From a virus, in the UHGV virus genome UHGV-1366990: DNA of 64,000 bases; one strand, written 5' to 3'. The position numbers were made by a program, and so were the translations under genes. Positions 24,368 to 45,212 of this stretch are shown here, in pieces (the stretch's first letter is position 1; each line of letters begins with the position of its first letter). Under the pieces are notes generated by a model that searched no databases, was not told the DNA's origin, and saw only the letters and a program-made list of their open reading frames with translations.

Positions 24368-24393
24368 ATTTTAAATTTATTCAATAAACGGGG

Positions 24394-24421
24394 TTTACTT
24401 CTTCAATAAACCCCGTATACT
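24394..24421 (+). promoter_or_regulatory. sigma70-like early promoter (TTTACT-16 nt-TATACT) inside a hairpin cassette
   Basis: The -35 lies in the loop of ACGGGGT...ACCCCGT; same architecture as the cassettes at 15132 and 58291. Confidence 0.5.
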
Positions 24422-35273: not shown

Positions 35274-36497
35274 ATGAAAGATAAACCATATGACATCCCA
35301 TATTGCGGTGTCCGTGAAACCAAAATCAAATCAGCCCATCCTATGTTAAGTTCATTCCACCGCCAGCTGGCATATGAATGGATGAGGGATCGTTATGCGA
35401 TACATGTCAAGAAGGACGTGCAATGCCTTCCAGCGCCATGGACGGATAATCCGGTATTACGCCAAGTCAAGTTTTGTAACGTGCGGAGAGAGCACGATAG
35501 ACAGTCTCGAAATTTGATCAATAATATCATCCTCAATCAGGATCTCACGCTATCTGACAAAATGTTCAACTGTGTATTGTTCCGCATGTACAACATGTGG
35601 GAACCTATACAGGCTTTGGGTGGTCCATGGACGATCGAAGAATTCGGAAACATAAATCTTGAATGGTGTCGAAATGTTCTTCAGGAATTCGAATCTAAAG
35701 GTGGCAAAGTTTTCACCAATGCGTTTAATACAGGCGGTCTGAAACAATGCCTGGCTTTCCCCGAACTAGTTGTCAACCACAAGGAGCATCACTTCGGTGG
35801 GATGATGGTGAATCTGATCTGTAAAGACGGTTCAATCCAGAACATGGATTACAAGGAAGCCAAGGCCATCGCTGAAGCAGAGCCGGACTTCTACACCATC
35901 GAAGGTTGGGAACCGTACATGCCAATGCGTGTCATCCGCTCCCTGAAGGCATTCGTCAACAAACACCCTCATTACTTTGATCGCCTCAGGGAATTTAGCC
36001 GTCCCGACTCTGTTTACCAGGCGATGTATGACGACATTGAGGGGCTTGGACCATTCTTGGCATACCAGATTTGGGTTGATTTTACATACATCGATGAATA
36101 TCCATTCAGTGAAAACCACTTCACTATCGCTGGTCCAGGTTGCCGTGCTGGTATCGATCTGTTATTTTTGGACAAGGACGGCATGACGCATGAAGAATGC
36201 ATATTCTGGGTTCGTGATCATCAAGATCAATTGTTCGCTCAGTATGGGTATAAACGTAATGAATTTTGGTCGGCAGAAGAACCGGAAGACCGTTGCATGA
36301 ATGTTATGCAGCTGGAGAACATGTTCTGTGAACTTCAGAAATATACCCGCTGCGTTGAGGCAGTGATGCGCGGGGAGAAACCTCGAGGAAAGGTGGGGTA
36401 TGACGGGAATGGCAGTGCGTATAAGCAACGTTGTGATGAAGTCGTGCTCAAACGTGGTTCCGTCAATTTGCTGGACCGTTTGAAGAAACCTGAATAA
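35274..36497 (+). CDS. hypothetical protein (407 aa), Trp/Cys-rich, function unknown
   Basis: AAGAGGA Shine-Dalgarno; no motif recognised by eye. Confidence 0.6.
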   Translation: MKDKPYDIPYCGVRETKIKSAHPMLSSFHRQLAYEWMRDRYAIHVKKDVQCLPAPWTDNPVLRQVKFCNVRREHDRQSRNLINNIILNQDLTLSDKMFNCVLFRMYNMWEPIQALGGPWTIEEFGNINLEWCRNVLQEFESKGGKVFTNAFNTGGLKQCLAFPELVVNHKEHHFGGMMVNLICKDGSIQNMDYKEAKAIAEAEPDFYTIEGWEPYMPMRVIRSLKAFVNKHPHYFDRLREFSRPDSVYQAMYDDIEGLGPFLAYQIWVDFTYIDEYPFSENHFTIAGPGCRAGIDLLFLDKDGMTHEECIFWVRDHQDQLFAQYGYKRNEFWSAEEPEDRCMNVMQLENMFCELQKYTRCVEAVMRGEKPRGKVGYDGNGSAYKQRCDEVVLKRGSVNLLDRLKKPE

Positions 36498-36612: not shown

Positions 36613-38631
36613 ATGTCAGAATTTAAGCCCTTCGCAGTAGCTGTTAACAACAACGTGCTGGCTATGTCAGCATCTGGTCTGTTCATGACCAACATCGATA
36701 AAGATGCTCTGTGGGATCTGTATCTGTCTTCTTTCCCTGCTGGTACCAACCCGCTCTACCGTGAGCGTACCGAGCACGACTGCACCTGCTGTAAACAATT
36801 CATCCGTAACATCGGCGGTGTGGTCACCATCGACGCCGACCTGAACGTGATCTCTATCTGGGATAACATTCAGCTGGGTAACGAATACGACGTTGTCGCT
36901 GCGGCGCTGTCAGCGTATGTTAAGCAGCACGCAATCGTCGACGTGTACTTCAACGACACCAAGAAAGTTGGTGTTGAGTCGAATCACGAAATGAAAGACG
37001 GTATTGTCCGCACCTACAACCACTTCCACACCGACCTGCTGGGCAGCTATGTTCTGCGGGCAGATACCATCGCTTCTAAGAAGGGTGAAATCCGCCAGGC
37101 GATTGAAGTGTTTGAGCGCGGCCTGCGTGAACTGTCTCTGGAATCGGCTGAAATCGTTCTGGAATTGATTGACCAGAATTCTCTGTATCGCGGTGAAGAG
37201 CACAAAGCGGCAGTGCAGGCGTTCGTGGTGAACAAGACCCTGTACGAACAAACTGCAGAAGAGAAACGCGCTCTGTGGGCTTGGCGCACTGGCTACCGTG
37301 CAAACGGTCATACCCCTCACGGCATTCGTAATACCGTGATTGGCTCTCTGCTGGTAGACCTCAATGAAGGCCGGGATCTGGAAACCGCCGTGAAGTCCTT
37401 TGAAGCCAAAGTCGCTCCGACGAACTACAAGCGCCCAACCGCGCTGGTCACGAAGTCCATGATTGAAAACGCGCAGAAAGAAGTCGAAGCGCTGGGCCTG
37501 ACCGATTCACTGGGTCGCCGTTATGCCGTGTATGACGATCTGACCATCAACAATGTTCTGTTCGCCGATCTGGCAGCTCAGAAGAAGATGGACCCGTTTG
37601 CTCAGCTGGCGTCTGAAGTGAAGACTCCGACCAAGTCCCTGGACAAGGTTGAAGAGATCACGATCGACGACTTCCTGACCAACGTGTTGCCAAAGGCGCA
37701 TTCCCTGGAAGTACTGGTTGAAAACTCTCACATTGGCAACCTGATGTCCCTGATCGCTCCGGCTACCGCAGGCGCTCCTAACCTGTTCAAGTGGAACAAC
37801 GGCTTCAGCTGGTCGTACAATGGCGAAGTGGCCGACTCCATCAAAGAGCGCGTGAAGACCGCAGGCGGTAATGTCGACAGTTTCCTCCGTGTGTCACTGG
37901 CTTGGCATAACAACGACGACCTGGATCTGAGCATGAACGATCCTCTTCACAACCACGTGTATTATCACAACCGTCGTTCGACAACTGGCGCAACTCTGGA
38001 CATCGACATGAACGGTATGGACGGCATTGATCCAAACCGCCGTCCGGTGGAGAACATCTTCTTCAGCGATGAACGCAAGCTGCGTGATGGTCTGTACGAG
38101 TTCTATGTCACTAACTTCAGCCAGCGTGAAACCTGTGATATGGGCTTCGAAATCGAAGTTGAATACAAAGGCCAGACCAAGCGTTTTTCGCATCCTGGCC
38201 TGAAGCACAAAGATCGCACTCTGGCTGTTGTGATTGATGTCCGCGCTGGACAAGTGGTAGACATCCGTTCTACCCTGAAAGACGACGCTCGCTCTCAGGA
38301 AATCTGGGGCATCAAGACCTCCGTCTTCCAGAAGGTACAGCTGGTTCTGAACTCACCAAACCATTGGGACGGCGAGCAGACTGGCAACAAGCACGTGTTC
38401 TTCATCCTGGAAGGTTGTGCTAACCCTGTCGGCACCCGTGGTTTCTATAACGAATATCTGAAGCCGGAACTTGATAAACACCGCAAGGTTTTTGAAATGT
38501 TAGGCGGTAAGATTAAAGTACAGCCAAGCACTGAGCAGCTGTCCGGTCTGGGCTTCTCTACCACCCAACGCAACCACGTGTTCGTGAAGGTGAGCGGTTC
38601 GTTCAACCGCACTGTGAAAGTTGTGTTCTAA
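36613..38631 (+). CDS. hypothetical protein (672 aa), function unknown
   Basis: CAGGAAG Shine-Dalgarno; upstream TTTACTTC...TTCAATAA cassette-like element; no P-loop seen. Confidence 0.7.
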   Translation: MSEFKPFAVAVNNNVLAMSASGLFMTNIDKDALWDLYLSSFPAGTNPLYRERTEHDCTCCKQFIRNIGGVVTIDADLNVISIWDNIQLGNEYDVVAAALSAYVKQHAIVDVYFNDTKKVGVESNHEMKDGIVRTYNHFHTDLLGSYVLRADTIASKKGEIRQAIEVFERGLRELSLESAEIVLELIDQNSLYRGEEHKAAVQAFVVNKTLYEQTAEEKRALWAWRTGYRANGHTPHGIRNTVIGSLLVDLNEGRDLETAVKSFEAKVAPTNYKRPTALVTKSMIENAQKEVEALGLTDSLGRRYAVYDDLTINNVLFADLAAQKKMDPFAQLASEVKTPTKSLDKVEEITIDDFLTNVLPKAHSLEVLVENSHIGNLMSLIAPATAGAPNLFKWNNGFSWSYNGEVADSIKERVKTAGGNVDSFLRVSLAWHNNDDLDLSMNDPLHNHVYYHNRRSTTGATLDIDMNGMDGIDPNRRPVENIFFSDERKLRDGLYEFYVTNFSQRETCDMGFEIEVEYKGQTKRFSHPGLKHKDRTLAVVIDVRAGQVVDIRSTLKDDARSQEIWGIKTSVFQKVQLVLNSPNHWDGEQTGNKHVFFILEGCANPVGTRGFYNEYLKPELDKHRKVFEMLGGKIKVQPSTEQLSGLGFSTTQRNHVFVKVSGSFNRTVKVVF

Positions 38632-40285: not shown

Positions 40286-40358
40286 CTGAATTATCAAAGT
40301 CCTTCAATAACAATAACGCCCAGTATATTTGCTGGGCGTTTCAATTTGTACATCACAG

Positions 40359-40364
40359 TATAAT
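40359..40364 (+). promoter_or_regulatory. -10 TATAAT downstream of terminator hairpin ACGCCCAG-N8-CTGGGCGT
   Basis: Perfect -10 hexamer 32 nt before ATG 40396; no good -35. Confidence 0.3.
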
Positions 40365-40395
40365 ACGGCTGTACAATACACCATGAGGTTACATT

Positions 40396-40629
40396 ATGTT
40401 TCGTTTGAAATTGAACGACCAAGATGTGTTCTACAAACACTTCACCTTCCCAGGTGGTGAGGAACATATCAAGATTCAAAAATCTGGTATCCCTATCGGC
40501 CATGTTCAGAACGTGGTGATTGATGCTCACATCAAATCATCAGACGTTCAGAAGCGGTTGGCTCTATCCAGCGCCTGTGGGAGATCTTTGAAACTGGGCA
40601 CTTCCTGTTGGATGAGCACATCGGCCTGA
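40396..40629 (+). CDS. hypothetical small protein, possibly frameshifted
   Basis: The first 50 aa are protein-like, the tail is junk-like; the alternative frame gives SIQRLWEIFETGHFLLDEHIGLIYGDSITPPGA ending in a C7 tract. Confidence 0.3.
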   Translation: MFRLKLNDQDVFYKHFTFPGGEEHIKIQKSGIPIGHVQNVVIDAHIKSSDVQKRLALSSACGRSLKLGTSCWMSTSA

Positions 40630-40714
40630 TCTACGGTGATTCTATCACCCCCCCTGGCGCGTGAAGACCGCTATTAAATCCCAACAGGGCGTCGTCTCTG
40701 TTAAGTGAGATCAA

Positions 40715-40930: not shown

Positions 40931-43124
40931 ATCATTAGAATTTAAGAATGCGGTTGCGACTGCTGCCCCGTCCAACCATGTAATCGTTGTAGACATTTCC
41001 GGCTCTATGTACCGTGCGCTCCCTGAAGTCCGTAAGCATCTGAAGGAGAACCTGCCTTCCCTGGTGAAACCGGAAGACACTGTGAGTGTTCTATACTTCT
41101 CATCCAAAGGCGACTTTGGCACTGTGTTCGCTGGCCGTCAGATCAATGCAGCATCCGACCTGAGCGAAATCAACAATCTGATTGACCGTTTCCTGCAACC
41201 ATCCGGCTGTACTGGTTTCGTTGAGCCATTGAAACTGGCGATGGACACTGCTCGTGGCCTGAAGAAGCCTGGCTATGTCAACAACCTGGCGTTCATGACT
41301 GACGGGTATGACAACTGCTGGCGTACCAACGAAATTCTACTGGTTGCTGAGACCCTGCCATTTGCTTTTGATAACATTACATTTATCGAATATGGCTGGT
41401 ACTGTAACCGCGAACTGCTGGCGCAGATGGCCGAACGCTCTGGTGCTACTCACGTGTTTGCCGAAGGTCAGACCGAATACCAGACCGAGCTGGAAAACGT
41501 GCTGAAGTCATCAGTGCCGAAGGTGAAAGTTGATGTCCCAGTCATCTACACCCATGCCATCTACGTCGAAAACGGTGTGGCAACAGTACTGGCGGTGCAG
41601 GACGATGACTCTCACCCGGTCGGCTATGTGAGCATCCCTGAGAGCGTCACCAAGCTGTGGGTTGTAAACCCTAACATGATCGACCAGCTTGATGCGCTGG
41701 CGGATATCCAGGCGGCATACGTGCTGGCGTTCTACGGCGTACACATCATGGACGCGGACCTGGTGTGGGCTGCACTGAAGAAAACAGGTGACGTTCGCTT
41801 CATCAAACAGTACAGCAACTGCTTCACCAAGCAGGACTACTCCAACATCAAGAACGATCTGGTTCAGGCGATTGTTGAAGACCAGCTGCGCGGCGTTGAC
41901 GGTATTGACTATGACCTGGTTCCGGCTGAAGATGCGACCACCGTCGTTGATGTGCTGACGTACCTGGCTGAAGCTGGTGTGCCTGTTGCTACCAAGCATC
42001 CGATGTTCTCCTATAAGAGTATCGGGCGCGGTACTGTGCAGAAAACCGACGACACCGAAGACAAGCTGGCAGAACAGATCGCGAATGCTCAGTCCAAAGA
42101 AGAGCGTAAAGCCCTGGCTCTCAAGCTGGCAGAGCACGAAGAGTGGAACCCGACGTTCGAACCTACCAACGACCTGGGTGTTGTGCCAATCAGTGATTTG
42201 GTCTATAACTTCGAGCGCCCGAACATCAGTGTGCGTACAATTCAACACGGTACTGTGGCTGTGCCTGAATTCGCACAGAAGAAGTTTGGCCTGCCTGAAG
42301 AACTGGACACTTTCCAGTGGCGCAACTACACCATCGTCAAAGACGGTATCATCAACGTGAAGACTCTGCCGTTCAAGGCTGATATCGAAGTTGTACAGAA
42401 GCTGATCGAAATGGGCGTCCACGTGTTTGGTGGTCCGGAAGTGTTTGTCCTGAACCTGGAAAGCGTACCGCTGGTCAACCGCGCCATGGTCAAGAACATC
42501 AGTGCTGCTCAGTTCTTTGCGGATAATGTCCGTCTGGAAGCCCTGAAAGGTAAGCAGAAGGTGCTGAAGTTCTATCGAGACGCCCTGGTTGGTAAGGGTA
42601 ACGCCAAAGGCCTGGCAGTACAGTACGGCGCTGAGGCGGCCGAGTTCCTGTCCTCCTACGGCATCCGCGATTACGGCTTCTCACCGAAGACTGAGACCAA
42701 AGAGTCTACCGACTTCTACATGAGCCGTGAGCTGAACGTGAAGATCGCCGGGGCGTCTTCACTACCGAGCATCGCGGCAGTACAGAAGAAGATCGCAGAG
42801 AACAAGAAACTCAATGCTGGTGACTTGTTCATCGCCAATGCTCTGAAAGAGTACGAAGCATTCGTGAAGTCTCCTATGATCACTGCCGTGCCTGAAGCCT
42901 TACAGAAACAGCTGATCGAAAACTGGATCGACGCTGCTGCCAAGGCGGCCATCACCGAAGTCCGTGCCCTGAACAAGACGCTGTCTAAAGTGGTGTATGG
43001 TATCGTTGCTGGTCATGGCTGGTTCACCGACCTCGACCTGGAAGAGTCCACCATGGAAGTTGAAGTGGATGGCGTGAAGTACAAGGTCACTGCCGAACTG
43101 ACAGAGAAAGAAATCAAAATCTAA
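40923..43124 (+). CDS. von Willebrand factor A (vWA) domain protein (733 aa)
   Basis: MIDAS-like VIVVDISGSM ... MTDGYDN near the N-terminus; the C-terminal 500 aa are unassigned. Confidence 0.7.
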   Translation: MIESLEFKNAVATAAPSNHVIVVDISGSMYRALPEVRKHLKENLPSLVKPEDTVSVLYFSSKGDFGTVFAGRQINAASDLSEINNLIDRFLQPSGCTGFVEPLKLAMDTARGLKKPGYVNNLAFMTDGYDNCWRTNEILLVAETLPFAFDNITFIEYGWYCNRELLAQMAERSGATHVFAEGQTEYQTELENVLKSSVPKVKVDVPVIYTHAIYVENGVATVLAVQDDDSHPVGYVSIPESVTKLWVVNPNMIDQLDALADIQAAYVLAFYGVHIMDADLVWAALKKTGDVRFIKQYSNCFTKQDYSNIKNDLVQAIVEDQLRGVDGIDYDLVPAEDATTVVDVLTYLAEAGVPVATKHPMFSYKSIGRGTVQKTDDTEDKLAEQIANAQSKEERKALALKLAEHEEWNPTFEPTNDLGVVPISDLVYNFERPNISVRTIQHGTVAVPEFAQKKFGLPEELDTFQWRNYTIVKDGIINVKTLPFKADIEVVQKLIEMGVHVFGGPEVFVLNLESVPLVNRAMVKNISAAQFFADNVRLEALKGKQKVLKFYRDALVGKGNAKGLAVQYGAEAAEFLSSYGIRDYGFSPKTETKESTDFYMSRELNVKIAGASSLPSIAAVQKKIAENKKLNAGDLFIANALKEYEAFVKSPMITAVPEALQKQLIENWIDAAAKAAITEVRALNKTLSKVVYGIVAGHGWFTDLDLEESTMEVEVDGVKYKVTAELTEKEIKI

Positions 43125-43128
43125 TCCA

Positions 43129-43155
43129 ACGGGCGGGGCAACCCGCCTTTCTTTG
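43129..43155 (+). terminator. rho-independent terminator GGCGGG-GCAA-CCCGCC-TTTCTTT
   Basis: GC stem plus U-tract after the vWA gene. Confidence 0.65.
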
Positions 43156-43166
43156 GGAGAAGTAGC

Positions 43167-43490
43167 ATGAGCAGTAAACCAACATATGTTGAAGTCATGC
43201 GTCATCTGGCTCAGTACGCCACCGACAATCTGAATATGGATCTGTGGCGTGACGATGACAAGCGCAAATTGCTGGACGACGTGGCATCTCAGAACGAGGA
43301 CGCCCTGGACAAGCTGGCTGGCCTCCGTACCAAGAAAGACCTCGGCGGTGATGAACTGGACGCTATCGAAATCGTAATGGACCTCGAAGAAGAGTTTCAG
43401 GTCGAAATCGACGACGGCTGGCTGGGTAGTAAAGGCGATGACCCGACCATGGGTGAACTCGCTGAACTCGTGGTTGCCCTGCGCAAATAA
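43167..43490 (+). CDS. acyl-carrier-protein-like protein with DSL to DEL substitution
   Basis: DLGGDELDAIEIVMDLEEEFQVEIDD aligns with E. coli ACP [26 protein letters not shown], but the Ser is Glu. Confidence 0.65.
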   Translation: MSSKPTYVEVMRHLAQYATDNLNMDLWRDDDKRKLLDDVASQNEDALDKLAGLRTKKDLGGDELDAIEIVMDLEEEFQVEIDDGWLGSKGDDPTMGELAELVVALRK

Positions 43491-43493
43491 CAG

Positions 43494-43522
43494 AAGTCCC
43501 CAACAAACGTTGGGGATTTTTA
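43494..43522 (+). terminator. terminator TCCCCAAC-AAAC-GTTGGGGA-TTTTT
   Basis: 8-bp stem plus U-tract. Confidence 0.65.
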
Positions 43523-43532
43523 CTTTTAGGGG

Positions 43533-43561
43533 TTTACTTCCTCTAAGGAATGTCCTATTAT
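43533..43561 (+). promoter_or_regulatory. sigma70-like early promoter (TTTACT-17 nt-TATTAT)
   Basis: Same TTTACTTC -35 context as the other cassettes; followed by TTCAATAA. Confidence 0.45.
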
Positions 43562-43612
43562 TCAATAACTGGCGAACGATGGGTTCACCGGGTTGAAAGG
43601 TAAGATTATATC

Positions 43613-43852
43613 ATGAAGAACAAAATGGTCGAAACTTCAGTAGAGATTGATCGCAATTGGGGATTGCTCCGCGCTAAAGGGTTCCGCCGTGTGTATGCGA
43701 CCAAAGAAGTCTACGCACAGCGTCGTGACGTTATCATCAGCAAGAAAGGCAAAGAGTGGGTTGCTGAAGAAGTTGATGTCGAGACAGGCATCGTAGGAAA
43801 GGTAAAGGCCAAGGCCGCGATCCTCTTCGCTCTTCTGAAGCACATCAGTTAA
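43613..43852 (+). CDS. hypothetical basic protein (79 aa)
   Basis: ATG in the conserved AGGTAAGATTATATCATG start region. Confidence 0.5.
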   Translation: MKNKMVETSVEIDRNWGLLRAKGFRRVYATKEVYAQRRDVIISKKGKEWVAEEVDVETGIVGKVKAKAAILFALLKHIS

Positions 43853-43911
43853 TTCTATAACTTTGGGCGGGGTATGATTACCCCGTCTATTTGAAACCAA
43901 GAGACTATATC

Positions 43912-44286
43912 ATGAAAAAGTTAATCCTCGCTGTTGCCCTGCTGGGCGCTTCCTTTGCTGCTGTTTCCGCCCCTCCTGTCATCACCGGAGTGTCTACCAA
44001 CGGTGTTTATGCTTTCAAGGCGTATGGCCAAGACCTCGTTCTGTATAAGAACGGGAAGATGATTGAGCGCTGCGTATCAGACGACGTGAATCGTGGGATC
44101 GACAATCAGGGTAGCCCATACGTCCTGGACATCTATTCCTGCTCCAACGGGACGAAGTCCTTTGGCGTCAAGACCTTTGGCAACGTCGCCGACGGTGGCT
44201 GGGGCTTCATGTTCGAAACCCGCAACCACCACCCGGTCAAGACCATGCAAGAAGAGTTCTTGATCTCTGTCGGGGGTACGTTATGA
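43912..44286 (+). CDS. exported protein with signal peptide (124 aa)
   Basis: MKKLILAVALLGASFAAVSA-PP: signal peptide with AxA site; conserved start region. Confidence 0.6.
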   Translation: MKKLILAVALLGASFAAVSAPPVITGVSTNGVYAFKAYGQDLVLYKNGKMIERCVSDDVNRGIDNQGSPYVLDIYSCSNGTKSFGVKTFGNVADGGWGFMFETRNHHPVKTMQEEFLISVGGTL

Positions 44287-44570
44287 CACCATCAGAGAGA
44301 AGTTCTATCAAGGAGATGATCAGAGACAAGGCGTGTGTTGGCCATACTCAGTCAGAGAACATCTTGCGCCTGATGGTAATAAAGAACGATATCGACAACA
44401 GCCGATTCCAAACAGCGTTGTATGGCATGCTGGAGTTTATATCGCGGTCATCTGATCTTGGCACGGTCCGATATCTTGACGATCTGACCAAGCTGCTGAA
44501 CACGGGCGGGGAAACTTTCGACGCCGCTCGTATCCTGATTGACGGTGGACCTGAAGAAGACGAGGTATAA
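44283..44570 (+). CDS. hypothetical protein (95 aa)
   Basis: ATGA overlap with the upstream gene. Confidence 0.5.
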   Translation: MTPSERSSIKEMIRDKACVGHTQSENILRLMVIKNDIDNSRFQTALYGMLEFISRSSDLGTVRYLDDLTKLLNTGGETFDAARILIDGGPEEDEV

Positions 44571-44762
44571 TTTGGATAAAGAATTGGTTTGGGAAATTGT
44601 GAAGGGTGTCCTAGTAATAATCGCGGTGGTTTTCATCTTGGGTGGGAACTTCTTCTATTGGTTATTCCGATCCGACCAGAAACGTCGCGAACGCAAGGAG
44701 AAAGAGAGAAAGGATCGATGGATGCGCTAACTAAGGGATAACCCTATATCCCGAGGTGTGTC

Positions 44763-45212
44763 ATGTTCCTTACATCTTTTATTGACTGGTTGAACATCAT
44801 TAACGGCCTGAGGATTCCTGTTGGGAACCTCGGGCTTTCTCGTTCTTCTATGCCGCAAATCGATGCCGACAAACAAGAAGATTTTCACAAATATCTTGAA
44901 GACAACGGCGTGTCCATAGATGCTGTGCAAGTGCCCATCAAAATGCTTCGTCTTACCCAGAACGAAATCAACAAGATGAAGGTCTGGAAGATCATGAAGA
45001 ACATCAGAAATAAGAAACCTATGGGTCGAGTTTGGGTGTCTTCTGACAATTACGTTGTTGACGGTTCTCACCGATTTGTCGCTGCGTTGAACATGGACGG
45101 CAAACAGCGCATGAAGGTCTACAAAGTTGATTTGCCAGCGATGGAATTTGTTAAACTCGCTAAACAGTTTCAGGGTGTGCGATACAGAACGGTCAGTGAT
45201 ACCCGTTTCTGA
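44763..45212 (+). CDS. ParB/sulfiredoxin-like nuclease domain protein
   Basis: VSSDNYVVDGSHRFVAA matches the ParB N-domain DGxHR core; GAGGTG Shine-Dalgarno. Confidence 0.5.
   Translation: MFLTSFIDWLNIINGLRIPVGNLGLSRSSMPQIDADKQEDFHKYLEDNGVSIDAVQVPIKMLRLTQNEINKMKVWKIMKNIRNKKPMGRVWVSSDNYVVDGSHRFVAALNMDGKQRMKVYKVDLPAMEFVKLAKQFQGVRYRTVSDTRF

Follow-up and report, generated by a model that had tools for sequence, protein, structure and literature searches.

An acyl-carrier-protein-like protein of Ackermannviridae phages with an acidic residue in place of the phosphopantetheine serine

We analyzed a 64,000-nucleotide stretch of the virus genome UHGV-1366990 (hereafter the window), which is part of an Ackermannviridae phage genome, and focused on a small gene that is widely annotated as 'acyl carrier protein' (ACP) (Table 1). 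Judging from its sequence and those of its homologues, the product, which we refer to as the pseudo-ACP, is a maintained functional protein of the ACP fold that is not phosphopantetheinylatable at the canonical site, and it most likely acts by binding another protein. The novel aspect is that the ACP fold has apparently been recruited for something other than a carrier role, throughout the Ackermannviridae and repeatedly in other phages; no paper noting the missing serine or proposing a function was found in the literature.

An earlier note on this DNA, made from the sequence alone, had stated that the invariant serine of the ACP motif DSL is replaced by glutamate. We confirmed this replacement, as Glu63 of the pseudo-ACP aligns with Ser36 of Escherichia coli AcpP, the phosphopantetheine-bearing residue. 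The window protein has four serines (positions 2, 3, 41, and 88), none of which is conserved or stands in a DSL-like context. Among 47 representatives of homologue clusters, residue 63 is Glu in 40, Asp in the other 7, and never Ser; two fragments without the residue-63 region are the exceptions to this count. An acidic residue also occupies the Ser36 position in 18 IMG/VR Ackermannviridae genomes, in four divergent contigs (Glu or Asp) whose proteins are 30–45% identical to the pseudo-ACP, and in gp092, a shorter ACP-like protein of Serratia phage phiMAM1. The same holds for an open reading frame (ORF) of Erwinia phage Bue1 (vB_EamM-Bue1, MG973030; L230, 5316–5615), which has the motif AMDELD, lies directly 3' of a gene for a vWA-domain protein, and is uncalled in the collection's gene calls. 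The related phages in which the earlier note had allowed for a retained serine therefore have none. The codons found at position 63 in relatives are GAA, GAG, GAT, and GAC; no Ser codon can be reached from any of them by fewer than two substitutions. Since the Ser36 equivalent is Glu or Asp family-wide, attachment of 4'-phosphopantetheine at this position should be impossible.

Essentially all Ackermannviridae genomes examined have the gene, which amounts to 272 phage records, and the full-length protein is kept in all of these records and in divergent lineages. The pairwise ratio of nonsynonymous to synonymous substitution rates (dN/dS) is 0.02–0.31, which shows that the gene is under purifying selection.

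The relationship to ACPs was recovered by several searches. BLASTP against E. coli AcpP returned the alignment of the C-terminal half that the earlier note had drawn, with 17 of 27 residues (63%) identical over residues 57–83, helix II. The Pfam model PF00550 (PP-binding) scored 24.7 bits, passing its gathering score of 20.8, and the protein is predicted to form the helical bundle of carrier proteins, so that a fold other than that of ACP was not borne out. PHROG 4154 ('acyl carrier protein') matched the pseudo-ACP from end to end (2.6e-57), and a phmmer search against all PDB chains returned only ACPs, the best with an E value of 1.6e-5. PF14573 (PP-binding_2) reached 27.5 bits, under its threshold of 32, and ten NCBIfam ACP models were all far under their cut-offs (best 33.7 versus 70.45 bits). 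The pseudo-ACP is thus ACP-like by four independent measures, yet it is no orthodox ACP. Recent capture of a host acpP gene was considered and rejected, because the best matches are non-enterobacterial and the family is deeply diverged.

The pseudo-ACP is acidic, with an isoelectric point (pI) of 4.24 and 27 Asp and Glu versus 13 Lys and Arg residues, and it has no Cys. Around the lost serine, the main Ackermannviridae family shows no variation at L59, G60, G61, D62, L64, D65, I67, E68, E74, E76, and D83. Two elements distinguish this family from canonical ACPs (Table 1). One is an additional N-terminal helix, in which a hydrophobic stripe of Y7, V10, L14, A18, and N21 is invariant, as is L22 directly past the helix. 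The other is a loop after helix II, written here W...DDPT, which is invariant in the main family. ACP helix I falls at about residues 30–40 in the alignment and the model. Because 57 residues precede the DLGGDE motif of the pseudo-ACP and 30–31 precede DLGADS of AcpP, the net N-terminal addition is about 27 residues; the 50-residue extension described in the earlier note was an overestimate, the addition comprising one extra conserved helix. The phiMAM1 and Bue1 versions have neither the helix nor the W...DDPT loop. The acidic substitution is common to all three variants and, as far as their sequences indicate, may predate the helix and the loop; alternatively, the helix and loop may have been lost secondarily, or the genes may have been acquired separately.

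The surroundings of the gene were evaluated with Pfam and PHROG scans. In line with the earlier statement that partner lipid or polyketide enzymes are missing, the roughly 8 kb upstream and 2 kb downstream of the gene yielded no lipid, polyketide, or phosphopantetheinyl-transferase genes. For the ten flanking genes (35.3–45.2 kb), these scans gave only a 5-hydroxymethyldeoxyuridine (5-hmdU) DNA kinase, DUF3268, a gp49/gp66-like domain, and vWA. The annotation of Salmonella phage Maynard (Kuttervirus), read over 21 kb, likewise contains no phosphopantetheinyl-transferase and no acyl-, ketide-, or peptidyl-processing genes. Going by this annotated relative, the pseudo-ACP unit is within a block of replication and DNA-metabolism genes, not among the late structural genes: clamp-loader, RegA, and MazG genes border the block at one end, and helicase, RNase H, late sigma factor, and gp46/47 genes border it at the other. 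The 5-hmdU DNA kinase (35274–36497; PF18723, E 1.6e-83) is a thymidine-hypermodification kinase carried by the phage, and it is followed by a 672-residue protein (36613–38631) that has DUF8224 in relatives; no further thymidine-hypermodification enzymes were identified among the ten genes scanned.

The features of the locus are collected in Table 1. About 18 nt separate the end of the upstream hairpin from the ATG of the pseudo-ACP gene, and no promoter-like site was found between this hairpin and the ATG, nor between the vWA and pseudo-ACP genes. With so short a distance and no promoter-like site in it, the pseudo-ACP gene appears to be the final cistron of the unit that contains vWA. The earlier view of a single-gene unit between two terminators is therefore right in that hairpins with T-runs stand on both sides, and wrong in that there is no room for a promoter of its own, the gene being apparently the last cistron after vWA. 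The unit appears to begin past a terminator at about 40315–40340 and to run from a 71-residue ORF through the vWA gene, the hairpin, and the ACP-like gene to the downstream terminator. The vWA ORF was listed from 40881; homologues begin MIESLEFK, and comparison with them probably places the start at the site given in the table.

Table 1. Coordinates of the pseudo-ACP gene, its parts, and the neighboring features in the window.
Feature	Positions	Strand	Remarks
Pseudo-ACP coding sequence	43167–43490	+	107 residues, start ATG; predicted ACP fold
Shine-Dalgarno-like GGGAGAA	43155–43161	+	5 nt 5' of the pseudo-ACP ATG; GGGAG core at 43155–43159
Extra N-terminal helix, residues 7–21	43185–43229	+	missing from canonical ACPs; alignment and model
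Residues 58–83, DLGGDELDAIEIVMDLEEEFQVEIDD	43338–43415	+	equivalent of the loop and helix II ('recognition helix')
Codon GAA, Glu63	43353–43355	+	AcpP Ser36 (phosphopantetheine) position; sequence alignment
Loop W85-x-G87-x3-D91-D92-P93-T94	43419–43448	+	family-specific; insertion of 4–5 residues versus AcpP, after helix II
Small ORF, 71 residues	40715–40930	+	overlaps the vWA start; first gene of the unit (Maynard_86 equivalent)
vWA-domain protein, 733 residues	40923–43124	+	upstream cistron, start probable; metal-ion-dependent adhesion site (MIDAS) D24-x-S26-x-S28...T97...D127 intact
GC-rich hairpin and T-run between vWA stop and pseudo-ACP start	43131–43156	+	stem 43131–43148; kept in all lineages examined
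Downstream hairpin TCCCCAAC/GTTGGGGA, then TTTTTACTTTT	43497–43526	+	terminator of the unit; stem 43497–43516; conserved in distant relatives
Promoter-like motif GGTTTACTTC...TATTAT	43531–43561	+	for the next gene (43613–43852); marks the end of the unit

The hairpin between the two genes was surveyed at 43131–43148 of the window and at the equivalent sites in L002–L014 and L072–L075. By per-sequence folds, its stems differ by lineage (GGCGGGG/CCCGCC, GCCGGGG/CCCGGC, and GGGGGC/GCCCCC), and in L072 and L075 no T-run follows it, which raises the possibility of a role beyond termination. The arrangement of GGTTTACTTC and TATTAT past the downstream terminator is kept in relatives whose proteins are only 30–45% identical, and its first element has a second exact copy at 24392–24401; the motif may represent a class of phage promoter. 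T4-type late promoters (TATAAATA) had one match in 64 kb, equal to chance expectation, and Rfam gave no matches.

Positions 42000–45000 are 97–98.5% identical to Escherichia phages RPN242, PC3, PH4, LHE287, and AV101, and about 88–92% identical to Salmonella phages pertopsoe, Maynard, and P46FS4. Several close relatives carry insertions within this region, including a putative membrane protein gene and, in P46FS4 and EspM4VN, the pyrimidine-dimer glycosylase gene denV; gene content around the ACP-like gene thus varies, and the vWA/ACP-like pair is constant. Just 5' of the unit, positions 40290–40700 form a deletion scar in which only the 5' end of prs (ribose-phosphate pyrophosphokinase) and the 3' end of nadV (nicotinamide phosphoribosyltransferase) are left. 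Both of these NAD-salvage genes are present at this site in most relatives, and only phage RPN242 has the same deletion.

The same substitution was found outside this family. Normal-sized ACP-like proteins of 71–104 residues with Glu at the serine position are encoded in unrelated phage contigs (L054, L061, L078, L079, L181, L188, and L212–215). Their genes adjoin RecT/YqaJ in L054, lie in an early region with antirepressor, methyltransferase, and RecT in L078, stand near dCMP deaminase and DNA methylase genes in L079, follow a RuvC-like gene in L181, precede a primase-polymerase gene in L188, and follow a lysozyme gene in L212–215. No annotated lipid genes were present among the called neighbors, or none was apparent in the flanking ORFs that were read. 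DSL is nevertheless the rule among the phage ACPs of these scans, about 95 occurrences having been counted in two viral scans. Non-acidic replacements were also seen (two Gly and a single His, Pro, Thr, and Phe), at least some of them in proteins with more than one ACP-like motif. As an acidic residue is the usual replacement where Ser is lost, these data suggest that negative charge is usually selected, and the repeated finding of Glu for Ser in unrelated phages hints at a general principle and not at an isolated event.

Predicted bacterial lipoproteins with a signal peptide and a Cys lipobox were also found to contain an ACP-like domain with DELD for DSL (L077, 7001–7483; P0194, P0197, P0201, and P0190); one such gene lies beside ArgJ in a 1.17-Mb contig. 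They appear to represent an exported non-carrier use of the ACP fold, in which phosphopantetheinylation is presumably impossible. When P0050, P0052, and P0055, which are short relatives of the Glu type, were used to seed a contig scan, only ordinary Ser-bearing bacterial ACPs were retrieved.

How might such a protein act? We tentatively propose that the pseudo-ACP is a non-carrier mimic of ACP, along the lines of the decoy for host ACP-binding proteins on which the earlier note had speculated. Its acidic helix II, which has been retained, would be the surface that docks onto an ACP-binding protein, and this partner would probably belong to the host. The residues D62, D65, E68, and E74–E76 correspond to D35, D38, E41, and E47–E49 of AcpP; they are invariant in 26 Ackermannviridae sequences (E75 in at least 90%) and conserved in distant relatives. 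In AcpP, D35 and D38 are required for client binding (PMC13343975). If this proposal is right, carrier chemistry would have been lost permanently and the ACP fold would serve as a protein-binding module. The carboxylate of Glu/Asp63 would hide the protein from the host phosphopantetheinyl transferase (AcpS) and would fix a negative charge roughly where holo-ACP has its phosphodiester. The pseudo-ACP could then occupy the ACP-docking site of a client without delivering an acyl group, and the extra N-terminal helix and the W...DDPT loop may add specificity or affinity.

The likeliest targets would be host clients that accept ACP free of phosphopantetheine, for example PlsB, the glycerol-3-phosphate acyltransferase, or MukB, a condensin. 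Overproduced unmodified E. coli ACP (apo-ACP) inhibits the former enzyme activity and blocks growth (PMC3896788). MukB binds apo-AcpP as well, and its ATPase responds to the apo and holo forms with equal stimulation (PMC8602292). IscS and SpoT would be less likely targets because, according to the literature, they need Ser36 or holo-ACP.

Several points weigh against this proposal. Host AcpP is present at about 50 μM (PMC8602292), so a product of a distal cistron behind a hairpin would need far tighter binding than AcpP or a scarce client. A conserved helix II is a general trait of ACPs, the Ser-bearing phage ACPs among them, and by itself gives no indication of host-protein mimicry. Helix capping alone may favor an acidic residue where helix II begins, and a decoy role leaves the extra helix and the DDPT loop unexplained. 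The top sequence matches are ACPs of Bacillus, plastids, and mitochondria, not E. coli AcpP. In the full-text literature, the gene was found only in annotation tables, with no functional account of the protein. The contrast between phages and bacteria also comes from small samples and from search patterns that were partly Glu-specific: the bacterial chromosomal ACP loci sampled had Ser in 80 of 80, and counting only a neutral search pattern, about 2 of some 53 viral matches were Glu-type versus 0 of 80 bacterial ones, too few for a claim of enrichment. Finally, the vWA protein encoded directly upstream provides the main rival explanation, which is weighed below.

A broader version of the mimicry proposal would make the locked Ser-to-Glu/Asp ACP mimics a recurrent phage device, in which the carboxylate replaces the phosphodiester of holo-ACP and irreversible docking shuts off or hijacks an ACP-dependent host machine during infection; in Ackermannviridae, this device would have become a core gene of the whole family, with the extra helix and the DDPT loop as elaborations. 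Candidate targets would be MukBEF, whose ATPase needs AcpP, or the synthesis of membrane lipids or lipid A. We regard this generalization as doubtful.

According to the main rival, the pseudo-ACP is a small subunit or regulator of the vWA protein, with Glu/Asp63 or the DDPT loop completing the coordination of Mg2+ at the MIDAS. Ligands of MIDAS sites donate a carboxylate, as the acidic ligands of integrin I-domains and of midasin do, and the occurrence of only Glu or Asp at position 63 is what would be expected of a metal ligand. The vWA gene lies directly 5' of the ACP-like gene, about 40 nt away, in the window, and the same arrangement is found in Maynard, in the four divergent contigs, and in Bue1, the two genes adjoining in all Ackermannviridae-like loci that were read; the lack of a promoter between the two genes fits as well. 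The vWA domain is N-terminal, and 41 homologues, with identity down to 34%, preserve its MIDAS motif DxSxS...T...D. The AlphaFold model of the vWA protein has a predicted local distance difference test (pLDDT) score of 85, and its profile had only insignificant matches in the PDB (best E 0.27, anamorsin). Furthermore, the vWA protein and the pseudo-ACP were both detected in virion preparations of phage Sajous1, with one spectrum each (PMC10892097). Against a partnership, the vWA family extends to 502 phage records, among them those of the Straboviridae RB43, RB16, and KP27 and of Pseudomonas phage pf16, versus 272 for the ACP-like protein. In KP27, pf16, Shewanella phage Thanatos-1, and an Aeromonas contig, the vWA gene has no ACP-like ORF within 2.5–3 kb, and in phiMAM1 three genes (0.9 kb) separate the two. 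The Glu-type ACP-like genes of unrelated phages have no vWA gene among their called or annotated neighbors. As gene order in Ackermannviridae is conserved globally, the adjacency does not count as independent evidence. The vWA protein also evolves far more slowly, being 73–93% identical in the same genomes in which the ACP-like protein is 30–45% identical. We consider a vWA partnership unlikely, although it is the strongest competitor of host-client docking.

Two other explanations appear much less probable. The pseudo-ACP might be a decaying relic of a phage ACP, or a generic acidic protein such as a DNA mimic with an anti-restriction role. Its low pI fits the latter, and both could be reconciled with a gene that sits among replication and repair genes and with the several Glu-type ACP-like genes that stand beside RecT, YqaJ, RuvC-like, and primase genes. 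However, a relic is excluded by the low dN/dS values and by the full-length conservation of the protein; canonical AcpP is just as acidic (pI 4.05); and the fold lends no support to DNA mimicry. PADLOC, whose models describe defense rather than anti-defense, returned no match for the pseudo-ACP, the vWA protein, or five neighbors. Taken together, this pair of readings is highly improbable. The remaining explanation, an unconventional carrier that holds its substrate on the carboxylate of Glu/Asp63 or on another residue, for example for thymidine hypermodification, has in its favor that the invariant acidic residue occupies exactly the attachment position and that the 5-hmdU DNA kinase gene is in the same block, 7 kb upstream. 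The amino-group carrier LysW does use a glutamate for attachment. However, no ATP-grasp ligase, adenylating enzyme, or transferase was found in the flanks scanned, about 8 kb on the upstream and 2 kb on the downstream side, Glu and Asp interchange among close relatives, which is unusual for a covalent attachment site, and the fold is that of an ACP, not the zinc-ribbon of LysW. The Glu-type ACP-like genes of other phages have no hypermodification genes among their called or annotated neighbors either. A carrier function of this kind is, in our judgment, very improbable.

An immediate practical result concerns annotation. The family-wide loss of the attachment serine means that the label 'acyl carrier protein' is wrong and that metabolic inference from this label is unfounded; the current filing as an auxiliary metabolic gene is misleading. 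The 272 records include many candidates for therapy against Salmonella, E. coli, Klebsiella, and Dickeya. If the pseudo-ACP is an ACP mimic, it would represent a new class of host-takeover protein. As a genetically encoded probe, it could then report on the sites at which essential bacterial enzymes, themselves antibiotic targets, dock ACP. If it is instead a ligand of the vWA protein, it would offer the first handle on the function of a very widespread and equally unexplained phage vWA/MIDAS protein.

Comparison with known systems places the pseudo-ACP apart from each of them. It differs from AcpP (PF00550) in Glu/Asp for Ser36, the extra N-terminal helix, the W...DDPT insertion, the sub-cut-off NCBIfam scores, and the lack of nearby fatty-acid or polyketide synthase genes. 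The Ser-bearing phage ACPs (phrog_5934; cyanophage P-HM1; many IMG/VR contigs) are likewise small stand-alone ACP-fold genes filed as auxiliary metabolic genes, but they have the canonical length and keep the DSL serine, whereas phrog_4154, the Ackermannviridae family, never has Ser. ACP-fold subunits of large complexes provide another comparison, including mitochondrial NDUFAB1/SDAP in complex I, ciliate and euglenid respiratory ACP-like proteins, and mt-SAF32. In the classical mitochondrial ACP subunits, Ser is retained and the acyl-phosphopantetheine arm mediates binding to LYR proteins, and we know of no large complex that contains a phage pseudo-ACP. LysW is a zinc-ribbon protein with a C-terminal Glu and an adjacent ATP-grasp gene; in the pseudo-ACP, of ACP fold, the acidic residue lies inside the chain, where helix II starts, and no ATP-grasp gene is nearby. 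The MIDAS ligands (Glu of ICAM for integrin, Glu of the ubiquitin-like domain for midasin, and Asp of anthrax protective antigen) are similar in that a small domain with an invariant Glu or Asp stands beside a vWA protein with an intact MIDAS; for the pseudo-ACP, this likeness comes from gene adjacency and residue chemistry alone, and the vWA family is widespread without an ACP-like gene. The closest functional precedent for a decoy is apo-ACP as an inhibitor, an ACP fold that engages a client without its prosthetic group. Apo-ACP is a transient intermediate with Ser36 intact and is convertible to the holo form, whereas the pseudo-ACP is locked, with a carboxylate for the hydroxyl and with added elements of its own.

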